DNA from: Polyangia bacterium
Lineage (GTDB): Bacteria; Myxococcota_A; Polyangia; Fen-1088
Assembly (NCBI GenBank): GCA_036494575.1
Contig: DASXOE010000154.1
Location: 17,345 to 81,344, forward strand
Length of the DNA: 64,000 nt
Reading direction: 5' to 3'
Shown: piece after piece, positions 30,056 to 35,101 of the stretch
Layout: every line of letters begins with the position of its first letter
Position numbering within the stretch: the stretch's first letter is position 1
Made by a program: the position numbers and the translations under genes
Notes under the pieces: model-generated
Database searches by the model: none
What the model was told of the DNA's origin: nothing
What the model saw: only the letters and a program-made list of their open reading frames with translations

Positions 30056-30236
30056 GGGATCTACGTTCGGCCAGGGCCGAGGGTTACGCCGGAACGGCGA
30101 GAATGCCAAGGACCGGTTTCGGGGCGGTCAAAAGTGCGCTCCATGTAAGTTCCCAGGCTGAAGTCACGTCGGGTCGTGTTACAAACCGCCATCTAGAAGC
30201 GCTGTGTAACCTCTTCCCAAAAAAGGATTCTTTCTC

Positions 30237-30599
30237 ATGTCCACGAAACTCAGAAAGCTCTTGGGGGCTCTTGGCCTGTCTTTTGGGCTGGTGGTGGCGG
30301 TCTCTTTGGGGGGGTGCAGCAGCAGCTCCAACACTCCCGCGAAGGACGGCAGCGCCGGCAGCGGTGGCAAGGACGGCGGCGGCGACGGCGCGGCGGGAAG
30401 CGACGCCGGCACGGCGGGCACCGGCGGCAGCGACGCGGCGGCTGAGGCCGGCAGCGACGTGAGTGGCGACACCGCGACCGATGCCGGCGCCGATGCGAGC
30501 ACCGAGGTACAGAGCGAAGCCGGCACCGATGGTGGCCTACCCGAAACGGGCGGCGACCTGGGCACCGACCTGGGCGCCGATCTCGGCGCGGGCGGCTGA
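30237..30599 (+). CDS. Small Gly/Asp/Ala-rich low-complexity lipoprotein
   Basis: Signal peptide plus lipobox (VSLGGC). AAAAGGAT SD-like sequence upstream. Confidence 0.45.
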   Translation: MSTKLRKLLGALGLSFGLVVAVSLGGCSSSSNTPAKDGSAGSGGKDGGGDGAAGSDAGTAGTGGSDAAAEAGSDVSGDTATDAGADASTEVQSEAGTDGGLPETGGDLGTDLGADLGAGG

Positions 30600-30623
30600 G
30601 GGCTCGACGAATCTGACCCCGCT

Positions 30624-30654
30624 CCTCTCCCGCGAGCGACGCAAGCGGGAGAGG
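30624..30654. terminator. 10-bp GC stem hairpin (cctctcccgc / gcgggagagg) between convergent genes
   Basis: Seen directly in the sequence between the gene ending at 30599 (+) and the gene ending at 30664 (-). Confidence 0.45.
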
Positions 30655-30663
30655 GAGAGGCCC

Positions 30664-31506
30664 TCATCTGGCGGGCGGTTTGCGGGCCTTCGCCACGGCT
30701 CCCACGATCGTGATGGGGAACGCCGCGCCGTGGAAGTAGGCGTCGATGGCTTCCTTCGTGAACAGGAGGACGTCCTGCATGTCCTCGCCGCGGCCGGCGA
30801 TGCGCTTCCAGCGCGAGAGCGGTCCGAGCTCGACGAGCGGCGCGAAGAAGAATTCGCGGGCGCTCTTGAAGAGGATCTCCCAGCGCTCGACGGCGAGCTC
30901 GACGCCGGCGAGGCCGGCGCGCTCGAGCCAGGACGCGACGATGGACCCGTCAGGCACGGAGGCGACGTGCTCGGCCAGCGCCGCCACGCTCTCTGGCGTG
31001 CCGTTCTCCAGCAACACGTCACGATAGATGTCGAGGAACTCGGTCCACGATCCGCGCAACGGCGTCGTCAAGAGGAGCTGGCCGCCCGGGGCGAGGACGC
31101 GCGCGAGCTCGCGCACGGCGAACGGCGGATCCTCGAAGGCGGCCGACGCGAGATTCGAAACGACGATATCGGCGGAGGCGTCGGGGACGGGCAGGGGCGC
31201 CGCTGGCGCGCGCTCGAAGGTCACGCGCCCCGGGGCAGCGGCCTCCAGTCTGGCGCGCGCCTGCGCGACGAAGGGCGCCTCGTCGAGCGCGATGAACCGT
31301 GACGCGGCGTCGAAACGGCGCACGAGCTCGAGCGTGAGCGCGCCGGTGGCGCAGCCCACCTCGACGACGCGCGCGGCAGGCCGCACCTCGAGCGCGTCGA
31401 GGAGCATCGCCGCGAAACGTTGCCCGTAGGCCGGCGCCACCTCGGCGTCGTAGATGCGCGCGAGGCGCTCCTGCTTCTCGAGGGTGCCTGGCTTGACCGG
31501 TATCAC
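30664..31506 (-). CDS. Class I SAM-dependent methyltransferase
   Basis: Motif I VVEVGCATGALTLEL, motif II DIVVSNL, motif III LAPGGQLLL. GTG start at 31506 overlaps the upstream stop as GTGA. Confidence 0.8.
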   Translation of the reverse strand: MIPVKPGTLEKQERLARIYDAEVAPAYGQRFAAMLLDALEVRPAARVVEVGCATGALTLELVRRFDAASRFIALDEAPFVAQARARLEAAAPGRVTFERAPAAPLPVPDASADIVVSNLASAAFEDPPFAVRELARVLAPGGQLLLTTPLRGSWTEFLDIYRDVLLENGTPESVAALAEHVASVPDGSIVASWLERAGLAGVELAVERWEILFKSAREFFFAPLVELGPLSRWKRIAGRGEDMQDVLLFTKEAIDAYFHGAAFPITIVGAVAKARKPPAR

Positions 31507-32888
31507 GACTTCCCCTCGGTCTTGCCGACGGGCGCGGGCGGATGCCAGCCGCGCACGGGACCGAGCGCCCGCCGCGTCCCCTCGTAGCGGCCCGCGACGT
31601 ACTTGCAAGCCAGCAGGTAGAGCGCCGACGAGATTCGATTGAGCACGTGCGCGAGATCGGCGCGCGCGGGGGGCGCCGTGGCGCCGCCCGTCTCGGCGGG
31701 GAACGCCGCCGTGACGGCGACCTCCGCCTCGCGCGCGACGGCGCGCGCCAGGCCGAGCTTGGCCACGACCGGGCCCTGCCGCACGTCGGGGTACATGAAC
31801 GGCACGCCATAGAGCTCGTGCGTGTGGTGGGTCGCATCGCGAAGCTCGTCGTCGCCCATGCCGAAGAGGCTCACGGGGGGCGCCGGCCTGCCCGTCACCT
31901 CGGCGCCCACGAGCGACCGCGCGAGCTCGAGGATCTCGCCGAGCTCGCCCACGAGCATGCTCGCGCCCTCGGCGTCCGCCGCCGTCTGCGCGTCGAGCAC
32001 GGCGGACTGCAGGAGGTCGAGCTTGCCGCGCGCGACGATGCGCGGGTGCGTCTTGCGCACGAGCGAGGCGTCGTCGAGAAGATGCGTCAGGTGGTCGGGC
32101 TTGGTGGCGAAGCGCTCTCCCGTTTCGAGCGCGCGGTACTTGCCGTTCGGATCGAGCGCCAGTGTGGGGGCTGGGGCTGGAGCTGAAGCTGGAGCCGCCG
32201 CGCCTCCGGCGACCACGCCATGCCCGCGCGGCGCGCGGCACACGTCGACGATGGCCTCGGCGAAGGCCCGCGCCGCGGCCTCGCAGGCCGCCTGGTCCCC
32301 CACGAGATACCCGCCGCCGAAGTTCGTCTCCGACGGCGGACCGAACCACTTGGCGAGCGTCGTGCGCGCCGCCTTGCAAGCGGCGTCGAGCCCCACGATC
32401 GATTCGAGCGGCGGCGCGATGAGGTAGGCGAGGGCGCTGCCCATTGGGGCGTCGGCCAGCGGTGCGAGGTAACGACCCACCGACGCGATGACGTGCGGGA
32501 AGAAGAGCACGGGACGCCCAGGCGCCCCGGCCGTCTCGACGGCGTAGAACCAAGCTTCCGTCTCGAGGTAGGCGAGACAGGCCTCGAGCGCGGCGTCGAT
32601 CTCCGCGGGATCCTGCGCGGCGTAAATGCCGATGCACTCGCCCGACAGCGGCCCCGAGGGGTGGCTCGAGCCGGCGTAGAACGACTTCGCGTAGACGACC
32701 TCGGCGGAGGCCGCCTTTGTGCCCTCGTCGAGCGACGCGAAGAGCGCGTCGTCGGAGGTCGCCGTGACGATGCCGAGCGCCCGCTGCCGCGGCGGCAGGC
32801 CGAGGGCTTCGGCCAGCGCGGGCGCGGCGTCGTCGATGCGCCGCACGGAGAGCGCGCGCGGCTTGACGGGCGGCAGGTCGAGCTTCAC
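31503..32888 (-). CDS. eutL: Fusion protein: N-terminal EutL-type tandem BMC shell domain and C-terminal PduO-type ATP:cob(I)alamin adenosyltransferase-like domain
   Basis: Residues 1-215 align closely with E. coli EutL (LGIVTATSDDALF..EVVYAKSFYAG..AYLIAPPLESIVGLDAA..PPSETNF..GDQAACEAAARAFAEAIVDV). An Ala/Pro linker follows. Residues ~245-440 follow the Cob_adeno_trans pattern (THPRIVARGKLDLL; LGEILELARSLVGAEVTG; FMYPDVRQGPVVAKLGLARAVAREAEVAV; LNRISSALYLLACKY). GTG start overlaps the eutC stop (GTGA). Confidence 0.7.
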   Translation of the reverse strand: MKLDLPPVKPRALSVRRIDDAAPALAEALGLPPRQRALGIVTATSDDALFASLDEGTKAASAEVVYAKSFYAGSSHPSGPLSGECIGIYAAQDPAEIDAALEACLAYLETEAWFYAVETAGAPGRPVLFFPHVIASVGRYLAPLADAPMGSALAYLIAPPLESIVGLDAACKAARTTLAKWFGPPSETNFGGGYLVGDQAACEAAARAFAEAIVDVCRAPRGHGVVAGGAAAPASAPAPAPTLALDPNGKYRALETGERFATKPDHLTHLLDDASLVRKTHPRIVARGKLDLLQSAVLDAQTAADAEGASMLVGELGEILELARSLVGAEVTGRPAPPVSLFGMGDDELRDATHHTHELYGVPFMYPDVRQGPVVAKLGLARAVAREAEVAVTAAFPAETGGATAPPARADLAHVLNRISSALYLLACKYVAGRYEGTRRALGPVRGWHPPAPVGKTEGKS

Positions 32889-33739
32889 AGCACGACGCCC
32901 GACTTCTTGTCGCGCAGCACGCGCTCGAGGGCCGCGGCCACGTCGCGCGCCGCCTCGGCGGGCGGGCGGCCGCGCGGGTTGATGTTCGAGATGACCTCGC
33001 GGTCGGCGTCGGTGGCGCCCGCGGCGGGCTGGTAGATGAAGTAGGCCGAGAGCGAGTCGGCGAAGCCGAGCCCGGGCCGCTCGCCGCAGATGAAGACGGC
33101 GGCCTCGGCGCCCGTGAGGCGCGCGATTTCGTCCATGATCTTGACGCGCGAGTGACGCACGAAGAACGCGGGCGCGTGCGCGAGGCCGCGCGCGGCGAGG
33201 GCCGCGACGAGCGCGCCGTGGAACTCGGGCAGGTGCTGGTTGATGGCCGCCGCCGACAGGCCGTCGCCGTAGATGACGACGAGCCGCGGCGCTTTGCCGA
33301 TGCGCTTGCCGAGCTCGACGCGCGCCTCGTCGGACAGCGCGCGCCCGAGATCGGGGCGCTGGAGGAAGATGGCCTTGTCGGGCGCGCGCGAGGCGATCTC
33401 GAAGAGCTCGAGCCGGCGCAAGAGCGCGGCGTCGACCTCCGACAGCACGGCGTCCTTCGCGGCGGCGTGATCGGCGCGGAAGCGCAGCATCGTGTTGGTG
33501 CGGTAGCGCGTGCCCGCGCGGCCCACGGCGACGCGCGCGGGCGTCGCCGCAAGAATGGACGGCATGACGCGCGGGTCGTAGGGCTCGCCGATGTTGACGC
33601 CGCGGTCGGGCGTCAGGAGGAGCGTGCCGCCGGAGTCGAGGGGGAGAGCCGTGTCGGAGGGTTTGACGGGAGTGGCGCTCGTTTGCTTTCGGAGAGCTTC
33701 CCTCACCATGGCTTCGATGCGCGTGCGATCGATCATCAC
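32885..33739 (-). CDS. eutC: Ethanolamine ammonia-lyase small (light) subunit
   Basis: Full-length similarity to EutC (RAVGRAGTRYRT, LVVIYGDGLS, ICGERPGLG). Confidence 0.9.
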   Translation of the reverse strand: MMIDRTRIEAMVREALRKQTSATPVKPSDTALPLDSGGTLLLTPDRGVNIGEPYDPRVMPSILAATPARVAVGRAGTRYRTNTMLRFRADHAAAKDAVLSEVDAALLRRLELFEIASRAPDKAIFLQRPDLGRALSDEARVELGKRIGKAPRLVVIYGDGLSAAAINQHLPEFHGALVAALAARGLAHAPAFFVRHSRVKIMDEIARLTGAEAAVFICGERPGLGFADSLSAYFIYQPAAGATDADREVISNINPRGRPPAEAARDVAAALERVLRDKKSGVVL

Positions 33740-35101
33740 TTACCCAAAAATCGACGCGTCGCCCGCGCGCGTCGTGAGCTTGCCGTTCGACATGAGCCCG
33801 AGCTCCTCCAGCCAGGCCTCGAACTCGGGCGCGGGGCGCAGGCCCATGAGCTGCCGCAACGTCGCGTCGTCGTGGAACGAGGTCGACTGGTAGTTGAGCA
33901 TGACGTCGTCGCCCATGGGCAGACCCATGAAGAAGTTGCAGCCCGCCGTCGTGAGCAGCACCTCGAGGTTCTCGAGGTCGTTCTGGTCGGCGTCGGCGTG
34001 ATTCGTGTAGCACGCGTCGCAGCCCATCGAGATGCCGTGCAGCTTGCCCATGAAGTGGTCCTCGAGGCCGGCGCGCGTGATCTGGCGCGCGTCGTAGAGA
34101 TACTCGGGGCCGATGAAGCCGACGACCGTGTTGACGAGGAACGGGCGGTAGTGGCGCGCGAGGCCGTAGTTGCGCGCCTCGAGCGTCATCTGATCGGCGC
34201 CGTGGTGCGCGTCGGCCGAGAGCGCCGAGCCCTGGCCCGTCTCGAAGTACATGACGTTGGGGCCCGCGCACTGGCCGAGCTTGAGCGTCATGTCGTGGGC
34301 CTCGTCGAGGAGCGCGAGTGTGACGCCGAAGCTGCGCAGCGCCTTCTCCGTGCCCGCGATCGACTGGAACATGAGCCCGAGCGCGGCGCCCTGCTCGAGC
34401 GCCTTCATCTGCGTCGTGACGTGGGCGAGGCAGCAGTTCTGCGTGGGCACGCGCCACGTGCGCATGAAATCGCCTGTGGCGTTCAAGATGGCCGCCGTCT
34501 GCGTGGGATTGTCGGTCACGGGGTTGACGCCGATGACGGCGTCGCCCGCGCCGAAGGAGAGCCCGTCGCGCAGCGACGCGAGGATGCCCTCGATCGAATC
34601 GGACGGGTGGTTCGGCTGCAGGCGCACCGAGAGGCGCCCGGGGAGGCCGACGGTGTTCGTCGCGTGCACGACGACGCGAATCTTGCGCGCCGCGACGATG
34701 AGGTCGAGGTTCGTCATGAGCTTGGCGCAGGCCGCGATCATCTCGCTCGTGAGGCCGCGCCCGAGGCGCAAGAGCTCGGCGCCGTCGTTGCGATCGTCGA
34801 GCACGTACTCGCGCAGGCGCGAGACCGTCCACGACTTCACGGAGTCGTAGACCGGGCGCTGCAGGTCGTCGAAAATGAGGCGCGTCACGGCGTCTTCCTC
34901 GGGCGGCACGACCGGGTGCTCGTGCAGGTCCGCCAGGGTCAGCTCGGCGAGCACCCGCTTGGCCGCGACGCGCTCGGAGACGCTCGCCGCAGCCACGCCC
35001 GCGAGCCGATCACCCGACTTCTCCTCGTTGGCCTTCGCGAGCACGTCCTTGACGTCTCGAAACCGGTACGTGGTTCCGCGCAACGTCGCCCCGAGGTTCA
35101 T
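33740..35101 (-). CDS. eutB: Ethanolamine ammonia-lyase large (heavy) subunit
   Basis: 453 aa, the same length as E. coli EutB. Conserved throughout (YRFRDVKDVLAKANE, VNPVTDNP, MYFETGQGSA, GLPMGDDVMLNYQ). Start at MNLGAT (ATG 35101). Confidence 0.95.
   Translation of the reverse strand: MNLGATLRGTTYRFRDVKDVLAKANEEKSGDRLAGVAAASVSERVAAKRVLAELTLADLHEHPVVPPEEDAVTRLIFDDLQRPVYDSVKSWTVSRLREYVLDDRNDGAELLRLGRGLTSEMIAACAKLMTNLDLIVAARKIRVVVHATNTVGLPGRLSVRLQPNHPSDSIEGILASLRDGLSFGAGDAVIGVNPVTDNPTQTAAILNATGDFMRTWRVPTQNCCLAHVTTQMKALEQGAALGLMFQSIAGTEKALRSFGVTLALLDEAHDMTLKLGQCAGPNVMYFETGQGSALSADAHHGADQMTLEARNYGLARHYRPFLVNTVVGFIGPEYLYDARQITRAGLEDHFMGKLHGISMGCDACYTNHADADQNDLENLEVLLTTAGCNFFMGLPMGDDVMLNYQSTSFHDDATLRQLMGLRPAPEFEAWLEELGLMSNGKLTTRAGDASIFG

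Follow-up and report, generated by a model that had tools for sequence, protein, structure and literature searches.

A stretch of 64,000 nucleotides from a Polyangia bacterium (assembly GCA_036494575.1, contig DASXOE010000154.1, positions 17,345 to 81,344 of the forward strand), here called the window, was analyzed with respect to a gene that joins an EutL-type shell domain of bacterial microcompartments (BMC) to an EutT-type ATP:cob(I)alamin adenosyltransferase domain. The gene is the third of a tightly coupled four-gene operon, eutB-eutC-fusion-methyltransferase. The features of the operon are as follows, in positions of the window; coordinates of other loci are given with the locus number (L).

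33740 to 35101, minus strand: eutB, ethanolamine ammonia-lyase large subunit, start codon ATG at 35101 (MNLGATLRG...), identified by Pfam PF06751 and NCBIfam NF011649
32885 to 33739, minus strand: eutC, ethanolamine ammonia-lyase small subunit, 284 amino acids (aa), identified by Pfam PF05985 and NCBIfam NF003971
31503 to 32888, minus strand: the whole EutL-EutT fusion gene, 461 codons plus TGA, identified as an open reading frame (ORF) with homologues of the same length and the same domain pair
32226 to 32870, minus strand: EutL domain, residues 7-221, tandem permuted BMC domains of the BMC-Tsp type, identified by TIGR04502, NF011934, EutL entries of the PDB and Foldseek
32145 to 32225, minus strand: Ala/Pro-rich flexible linker, residues ~222-248, identified from the AlphaFold2 (AF2) confidence and the homologue alignment
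31584 to 32144, minus strand: EutT-type ATP:cob(I)alamin adenosyltransferase domain, residues ~249-435, identified by Pfam PF01923, NCBIfam and invariant residues
30664 to 31506, minus strand: class I S-adenosylmethionine-dependent methyltransferase, 280 aa, identified by Pfam Methyltransf_11 (E-value 7e-17), coupled to the fusion gene by GTGA

The two subunits of ethanolamine ammonia-lyase exceeded the family cutoffs. For eutB, the E-value with PF06751 was 1.7e-210 and the score with NF011649 was 671.9 bits (cutoff 554), and for eutC the corresponding values were 3.2e-75 with PF05985 and 262.8 bits with NF003971 (cutoff 230). The GTG start codon of the fusion gene (32888-32886) overlaps the TGA of eutC (32887-32885). 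This results in the GTGA at 32888-32885 by which, as an earlier note made from the sequence alone had correctly stated, the gene of a single 461-aa protein is coupled to eutC. At the other end of the gene, the TGA (31505-31503) is overlapped by the GTG of the methyltransferase gene. The GC content at the third codon position (GC3) follows one phase along the entire fusion ORF, with values of 0.81-0.97, and this continuity leaves no signature of a frameshift.

A homologue search covering 5.8 billion proteins identified 523 relatives, of which the best 120 clusters were characterized. These are 72-100% identical and 443-485 aa in length, and both Pfam domains are recorded for nearly all of them, PF01923 alone for a few. 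The same single ORF was found in clusters from NCBI, JGI, ENA and Logan assemblies, whose sources name the proteins simply 'EutL'. Among species-representative genomes, with the best 80 matches considered, the full-length fusion was found in ~55 genomes, nearly all of which are uncultured Polyangia, Myxococcales or Haliangiales metagenome-assembled genomes (MAGs). Carriers of the fusion include CAVZYM01, CAVZEF01 and CAWFVU01. More distant members (46-52% identity) come from MAGs with the labels Lentisphaerae and Pseudomonadota. The full-length fusions form only ~4-6 clusters at 50% clustering and thus represent a compact family. The mean pairwise identity of 47 species-level fusion proteins was determined to be 0.69 for the EutL domain and 0.66 for the adenosyltransferase domain. 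Such nearly equal conservation, together with invariant key residues in both domains, points to purifying selection on both halves of the protein.

The EutL-EutT fusion is a genuine conserved single polypeptide and not an artefact. In principle, a frameshift introduced during sequencing or assembly could have merged adjacent eutL and eutT genes of this MAG, and the two genes are indeed adjacent but separate in Firmicutes bacterium UBA2598 (L077). This explanation has practically no chance of being right, since the same single ORF is present in more than 120 independent clusters from all four assembly sources and in 47 species-level genomes, the GC3 phase is continuous, and the N-terminal region expected from a separate eutT is missing from the fusion. 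The breadth of independent assemblies already refutes it, and the frameshift that the earlier note had named as a threat to its proposal was not borne out. The EutT of L077 and the fusions have a (Y/F)RxLxTGx(K/R) segment in common, which, together with the adjacent arrangement in that genome, suggests the route by which the fusion arose.

The N-terminal part of the protein, for which the earlier note had proposed an EutL of ~215 residues, was identified as such over residues 7-221. The score with NF011934 was 244.8 bits (cutoff 198); with TIGR04502 an E-value of 1.8e-78 was obtained, yet the 262.9 bits remain below the cutoff of 300 for that model. Pfam BMC (PF00936) matches the domain in two stretches, as the note had expected, and these matches agree with the signature of EutL within BMC-Tsp. 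EutL chains of the PDB match residues 7-221 by sequence with E-values of 3e-52 to 7e-47. In the AF2 model of the full protein, which has a mean predicted local distance difference test score (pLDDT) of 84.6, the EutL part was aligned by Foldseek to EutL crystal structures with target-normalised template modelling (TM) scores of 0.90-0.92. The linker that follows, already noted as rich in Ala and Pro, has a pLDDT below 50 at residues 224-240. Its length ranges between 16 and 39 aa in the 47 fusion proteins and its sequence is not conserved.

Compared to EutL proteins of known structure (PDB 3GFH, 3I82, 4EDI and 3U27), the N-terminal 220 residues have the same fold and an identity of 40-44% in structure-based alignments. 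The fusion shares the PPSETN loop and the DxxxK edge motifs with canonical EutL, and its gene directly follows eutC, as does eutL in E. coli. In contrast to canonical EutL, the fusion bears a C-terminal extension of ~240 residues (linker and enzyme domain), it is encoded apart from all other shell genes in Polyangia, and Ala (position 206) stands where canonical EutL has the second Cys of its ACKAAC segment. All of 67 close and 47 species-level homologues have the DxxxK motifs (D54-K58 and D168-K172) unchanged. In the tiling of BMC-H and BMC-T proteins, these motifs form the edge contacts between neighbouring shell tiles.

For the C-terminal domain, a PduO-type adenosyltransferase with a degenerate ATP-binding motif ETGERFAT in place of TGDKGxT had been proposed. 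The assignment as an adenosyltransferase holds, with an E-value of 1.3e-12 and 48.5 bits (cutoff 24) for Pfam PF01923 (Cob_adeno_trans) on residues 268-428; E. coli EutT covers the identical model span with 49 bits. The PduO part of the proposal does not hold. The best NCBIfam family was EutT (NF011595, E-value 3e-16), whereas TIGR00636 (PduO_Nterm) was matched with an E-value of 2e-3 and 17.7 bits (cutoff 108), and the TGDKGxT loop is absent. In the profile alignment it is the invariant KPDHLTHL of the fusion, and not ETGERFAT, that stands opposite the ATP loop GDKGTTSL of the PduO enzymes, and the reading of ETGERFAT as a counterpart of TGDKGxT was rejected for this reason. The apparently degenerate motif is therefore the normal, invariant EutT version. 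Judged from the sequence, the C-domain is of the EutT type and not of the PduO type. PduO-type enzymes (L. reuteri PduO, 3CI1; human MMAB, 2IDX; BH1595, 2AH6) are only 23-24% identical to it and have the TGDKGxT loop where the fusion has KPDHLTHL.

The domain has the sequence signature of the EutT subfamily, namely PF01923 with KPxxLTHL and the family-invariant Lys, Arg, Asp, His and Glu residues. Twelve residues are invariant across E. coli EutT, Firmicutes EutT and the fusions (K263, P264, K279, P282, R287, D291, H354, R382, R386, E389, N417 and S420), and the EutT-family residues K263, K279, R287, D291, H354, R382, R386 and E389 are without exception in the 47 fusion proteins. The R-x3-R-x2-E and NR(L/I)SS segments match conserved PduO-type motifs in the profile alignment. 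With the EutT-specific KP(D/E)HLTHL and all family-invariant residues, the domain is 38-40% identical to Firmicutes EutT. A model of the C-domain alone gave a helical bundle with a pLDDT of 85.2 and a predicted TM score of 0.80. The domain differs from stand-alone EutT in its covalent attachment to a shell tile and in its N-terminus, where 50-85 residues including the HX11CCX2C metal motif are missing. Their place is taken by a conserved (Y/F)(R/K)xLx(T/S)Gx(R/K), also found in the stand-alone EutT of L077, and the CxxC of EutT is aligned to LxTGxR in the fusion. The full-length EutT model NF011595 was matched with 59.2 bits (cutoff 226), covering profile positions 87-246 of 267.

The missing N-terminal residues and metal motif, the score far below the NCBIfam EutT cutoff and the lack of an EutT structure in the PDB on which an active site could be mapped would fit a C-domain that is no longer an enzyme. 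Such a degenerate EutT fold would serve as a cobalamin- or cargo-binding adaptor, docking EutBC or holding B12 near the pore, and a housekeeping adenosyltransferase encoded elsewhere would supply adenosylcobalamin. This is very doubtful. All 12 residues invariant across the two stand-alone EutTs and the fusions are kept, the R-x3-R-x2-E and NR(L/I)SS segments correspond to PduO-type motifs, and E. coli EutT has the same Pfam score and span. Furthermore, EutT enzymes fall into a metal-dependent class, as in Salmonella and E. coli, and a metal-independent, Listeria-type class, and a metal-independent class without the Cys motif has been documented (Costa and Escalante-Semerena, 2018, cited as reference 14 in PMC9426561). 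Adenosyltransferase activity is thus predicted for the C-domain from its conserved residues.

EutT was also found joined to another partner. In a Bacillota MAG (L068:2777-4165) and in EUT loci of Desulfosporosinus (L072:12696-14048, L075:12668-14089 and L076:12595-14034), it is fused at its C-terminus to a PduL-like domain of ~200 aa, which we take to be the phosphotransacylase PduL on account of a GxSNRHxHLS motif. Together with the EutL fusion, this indicates that EutT was joined to different microcompartment partners more than once.

The gene order eutB-eutC-fusion-methyltransferase is conserved in the Polyangia loci, and the same fusion next to eutBC in other Myxococcota, which the earlier note had suggested to look for, was thereby found. 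In some genomes the surroundings are different. The fusion gene is present alone, without eutB, eutC or the methyltransferase gene in its flanks, in L030:9941-11314, L034:1934-3292, L048:10001-11296 and L037:1589-2890, and in L043, L049, L050 and L059 it adjoins eutC but not eutB. The module can therefore be fragmented. One subclade of Polyangia/Myxococcales has three genes on the same strand between eutB and eutC (L032:5570-8825, L035:1285-4579 and L038:5489-8847). Their products are two unknown proteins, one of ~315 aa and one of 525-650 aa (stop to stop), and a TPR protein of ~280 aa, and the insertion is kept in three species. The annotated neighbours of the fusions in L030 and L043 and of the loci with an insert between eutB and eutC (L035, L038, L007, L018 and L023) were only TPR, SPFH, kinase, sensor-kinase and unknown proteins, none of which bears on the function.

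Shell genes were searched for in the window and around the fusion loci. Searches of the window by tblastn with E. coli EutM, EutN, EutS, EutK, EutA, EutH and EutE yielded no match, and the same was found for Haliangium-type (HO-type) BMC-H, BMC-P and BMC-T, aldehyde dehydrogenase (AldDH) and PduS queries. Within 10 kb around the Polyangia fusion loci, no homologue of EutM, EutN, EutS, EutK, EutA, EutE or EutH and no HO-type shell, AldDH or PduS homologue was detected. An Rfam scan of the whole window revealed neither a cobalamin riboswitch nor any other RNA. The earlier statement that the window lacks shell genes, EutA, EutT and a permease agrees with the absence of EutM/N/S/K/A/H and HO shell matches; for EutT it has to be corrected, since EutT is the C-terminal half of the fusion.

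The N-terminus of EutC carries a further conserved feature:

33686 to 33736, minus strand: N-terminal amphipathic segment of EutC, MIDRTRIEAMVREALRK, resembling an encapsulation peptide and followed by a variable linker, identified as a motif conserved in relatives

The motif (M/T)(I/V)DR.R(I/V)E.(M/L)VR.AL, followed by a variable Gly/Ala-rich linker, is conserved in ~50 Polyangia loci. The segment resembles the N-terminus of EutC from shell loci, as in E. coli (MDQKQIEEIVRSVMAS) and in L055 (MNYSRTHIEEIVREVL). In contrast, the EutC of Acinetobacter baumannii, which has no microcompartment, does not carry such a signal (PMC9426561). A conserved amphipathic segment with a variable linker is characteristic of an encapsulation peptide, and a function in targeting appears likely for it.

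Shell loci were found in relatives that carry the fusion. In a Lentisphaerae MAG (L055:7692-14168; CAIQLG010000008.1), seven compact genes have the order eutB-eutC-fusion-BMC-Tdp-BMC-H-BMC-P-AldDH, the fusion being a single ORF of 425 aa directly followed by a CcmP-like BMC-Tdp. The shell proteins of this locus resemble the HO type (81% identity for BMC-H), and the locus may represent a minimal EUT3/SPU6-like type. For the analysis of co-occurrence, HO-like BMC-H and AldDH proteins were traced to the assemblies that encode them, and these were compared with the fusion carriers. In three assemblies, an HO-type shell locus and the fusion were identified on different contigs: in DATFWX01 (shell locus L082 and fusion locus L047), in DASREC01 (L112 and L035) and in DATBHU01 (L113 and L011, the fusion of which is 74% identical to that of the window). 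BMC-Tdp, BMC-H and AldDH are present in all three shell loci and BMC-P in two of them; L082 comprises BMC-Tdp, BMC-H, BMC-P, AldDH and an SLBB/Fer4 gene. Three of four look-ups of shell-locus proteins that NCBI names 'Polyangia bacterium' led to fusion-carrying assemblies.

The SLBB/Fer4 gene of DATFWX01 (L082:6939-8039; DATFWX010000003.1) lies directly after AldDH and encodes a protein of the flavoprotein/ferredoxin type. The best NCBIfam family was RnfC with 50.7 bits (cutoff 246), and the domain content recalls PduS. The protein is a candidate for the reductase partner of the tethered adenosyltransferase.

A locus of this kind has a close counterpart in the literature. Satellite 'EUT modules', consisting of EutBC or EutABC with an EutL-type BMC-Tsp, were described in genomes with a main HO, SPU3 or SPU6 locus, and the HO microcompartments are 'found mostly in Deltaproteobacteria' according to this catalogue (Sutter et al., 2021, Nat Commun 12:3809, PMC8217296). 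In the same source, EUT2K (EutABC with an adenosyltransferase) is a supplementary module that depends on another shell. The BMC-Tsp tree contains a 437-aa 'eutL' of a deltaproteobacterial MAG (UniProt A0A1V6HIV2) as 'HO (sat)' beside EutLs of 217-233 aa from other myxobacteria, and the additional length passes without comment (PMC8217296). The locus in the window, like ~50 other Polyangia loci, has eutBC and an EutL-type BMC-Tsp without BMC-H or BMC-P, and the EutC motif provides a putative encapsulation peptide on the cargo. The genomes are deltaproteobacterial or Myxococcota in both cases, and a main HO-type locus elsewhere in the genome was found in the three relatives DATFWX01, DASREC01 and DATBHU01. 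The modules differ in that the catalogue text names only EutA/B/C and EutL without an adenosyltransferase domain on EutL, and in that the module of the window lacks EutA but has a conserved methyltransferase.

The earlier note had placed a shell-free EutL domain beside a cytosolic ethanolamine ammonia-lyase; of its interpretation, the fusion and the reasoning on B12 stand, and the shell-free part is not supported. In this shell-free explanation, the EutL domain forms a soluble trimer that acts as a scaffold, binds cobalamin and perhaps also the N-terminal peptide of EutC, and hands the cobalamin to the tethered adenosyltransferase in a cytosolic complex for B12 recycling, with no microcompartment in the lineage. 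The absence of shell genes from the window and from 10 kb around any of the ~55 Polyangia fusion loci would agree with it. In addition, a crystal structure of EutL with cobalamin has been reported (Thompson et al., 2014, reference CIT0037, as cited in PMC5853799), which is in line with the note's statement that EutL binds cobalamin. Ethanolamine catabolism without a microcompartment is known in A. baumannii (PMC9426561), and encapsulation peptides can drive the aggregation of cargo without a shell (PMC12487888). Two Bdellovibrionota loci, outside the Polyangia, have eutB-eutC followed by EutL without other shell genes nearby, as described below.

A shell-free complex is nevertheless unlikely. 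HO-type shell loci are present in three fusion-carrying assemblies, the fusion of L055 belongs to a shell locus, all 47 fusion proteins have both DxxxK tile-edge motifs unchanged, and the signal-like N-terminus is kept in EutC, whereas it is absent from the EutC of an organism without microcompartments. Moreover, loci with eutBC and EutL are catalogued as satellites of HO/SPU microcompartments (PMC8217296). A more specific version, in which a soluble EutL trimer docks the EutC peptide, binds cobalamin and feeds an EutT trimer as a 'naked metabolosome core' left after the loss of the shell, appears decidedly improbable.

The two loci mentioned above are L061:2786-5778 (a Bdellovibrionia MAG) and L065:7781-10663 (an Oligoflexia MAG), where eutB-eutC is followed by a stand-alone EutL of 222-230 aa (stop to stop). 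No other shell gene was found in their flanks. Both could represent either additional satellite EUT modules or EutLs that are genuinely orphan; a Bdellovibrionales EutL is listed as 'incomplete (sat)' in the catalogue (Sutter et al., 2021, PMC8217296).

On balance, the fusion is probably a shell tile carrying its own B12-activating enzyme, encoded in a four-gene ethanolamine module (eutB-eutC-eutL::eutT-methyltransferase) that is a satellite of an HO microcompartment encoded elsewhere in the genome. The absence of shell genes from 64 kb is just what a satellite locus looks like. By analogy to EutL biology, the EutL domain would trimerise and tile the HO shell as a BMC-Tsp pseudohexamer, providing a conduit specific for ethanolamine. 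EutBC would be recruited via the N-terminus of EutC, and the aldehyde dehydrogenase encoded in the main HO locus would remove the acetaldehyde formed, as the gene content of that locus suggests. The EutT domain, held at the tile by the flexible linker of 16-39 residues, would convert cob(I)alamin and ATP to adenosylcobalamin for EutBC. The SLBB/Fer4 protein of the HO locus, which remains below the cutoff of any curated family, could perhaps deliver the electrons in some genomes.

Fusion to the tile would replace the N-terminal 50-85 residues of free-standing EutT and would guarantee the entry of the accessory enzyme into a foreign, non-EUT shell at a fixed stoichiometry. EutL and the adenosyltransferases of the PduO fold are both homotrimers. 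A coaxial arrangement of trimer on trimer is thus geometrically plausible. A tile specialised for the handling of B12 would also fit the description of EutL and PduB as tiles that link shell and cargo (PMC12487888; bioRxiv 10.1101/2021.10.27.466122) and the crystallisation of EutL with cobalamin.

Several points weigh against the assignment as an HO satellite. Shell genes are missing from the window and from the 10 kb around every Polyangia fusion locus, and neither an EutA reactivase nor a phosphotransacylase nor an alcohol dehydrogenase is encoded in the module. The score of the C-domain is far below the NCBIfam EutT equivalog cutoff (59 compared to 226 bits). The co-occurrence with HO-type loci is known from three assemblies only, and these are MAG bins open to contamination. 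Two further observations are listed here that do not count in either direction. The EutL domains of the fusions keep 58 of 99 positions conserved in canonical shell-locus EutL, a value obtained with a reference set of two narrow clades and without bearing on the competence for tiling. Seven more NCBI assemblies with HO-like loci are absent from the fusion list, which is uninformative given that the list comprises the best 80 matches among species representatives. The HO-like loci outside this list are:

PVBE01, MPMD02, CAYPHU01, JAKSDA01, BAAHIS01, DATHOX01, JBAIHT01 and ENA and JGI metagenomes (query proteins P0138, P0127, P0218, P0225, P0121, P0128, P0398 and P0472)

The methyltransferase gene, which is fourth in the Polyangia operon after eutB, eutC and the fusion, is conserved and translationally coupled; it was found immediately after the fusion in ~40 loci (e.g., L011:11389-12198 and L047:11354-12157). 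No NCBIfam model reached its cutoff for the protein encoded at 30664-31506, the best being BioC with 59.5 bits (cutoff 185). The family has a distinctive conserved C-terminal motif, REFFFAP(L/V)(I/V)E.GPL..WK..AG.G..MQD, and some members end in long acidic C-terminal tails. Next to it, an ORF of 162 aa (30179-30667, minus strand) has an ATG that overlaps the stop codon of the methyltransferase gene and is without a Pfam or NCBIfam match. Clear homologues of this ORF follow the methyltransferase gene only in the two closest relatives (L001 and L004), with a weak partial match in L005. The operon is flanked by unrelated housekeeping genes, namely alpha/beta hydrolases, hisD and an extracytoplasmic function (ECF) sigma factor, and farther out by MurJ, NAD synthase and others.

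A description of EutL joined to an adenosyltransferase, or of any enzyme joined to a BMC-T tile, was found neither in full-text searches nor in the two main locus catalogues. The fused architecture, which the earlier note likewise did not recognise as described, thus appears undescribed in the literature searched. Its parts are already known: EutL, EutT and the satellite modules with eutBC have all been described, hundreds of such proteins are present in the databases as EutL, and one is included in a published tree. The automated annotation as 'EutL' conceals the enzyme domain in hundreds of database entries.

The fusion is likely to be the first natural enzyme covalently joined to a BMC-T shell tile, and it would fix the site of B12 recycling relative to the shell. 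The way in which cobalamin is recycled in B12-dependent microcompartments, or passed through them, is still debated. An adenosyltransferase welded to the one tile reported to bind cobalamin offers a direct experimental handle on this question, as the face of the tile that bears the enzyme would reveal where re-adenosylation happens. Engineers of synthetic microcompartments, who often use the Haliangium shell, attach cargo to tiles artificially, and nature appears to do likewise in relatives of Haliangium, which provides a precedent for design. By means of the fusion, a small 'plug-in' module for ethanolamine seems to be able to use a shell that is foreign to it.

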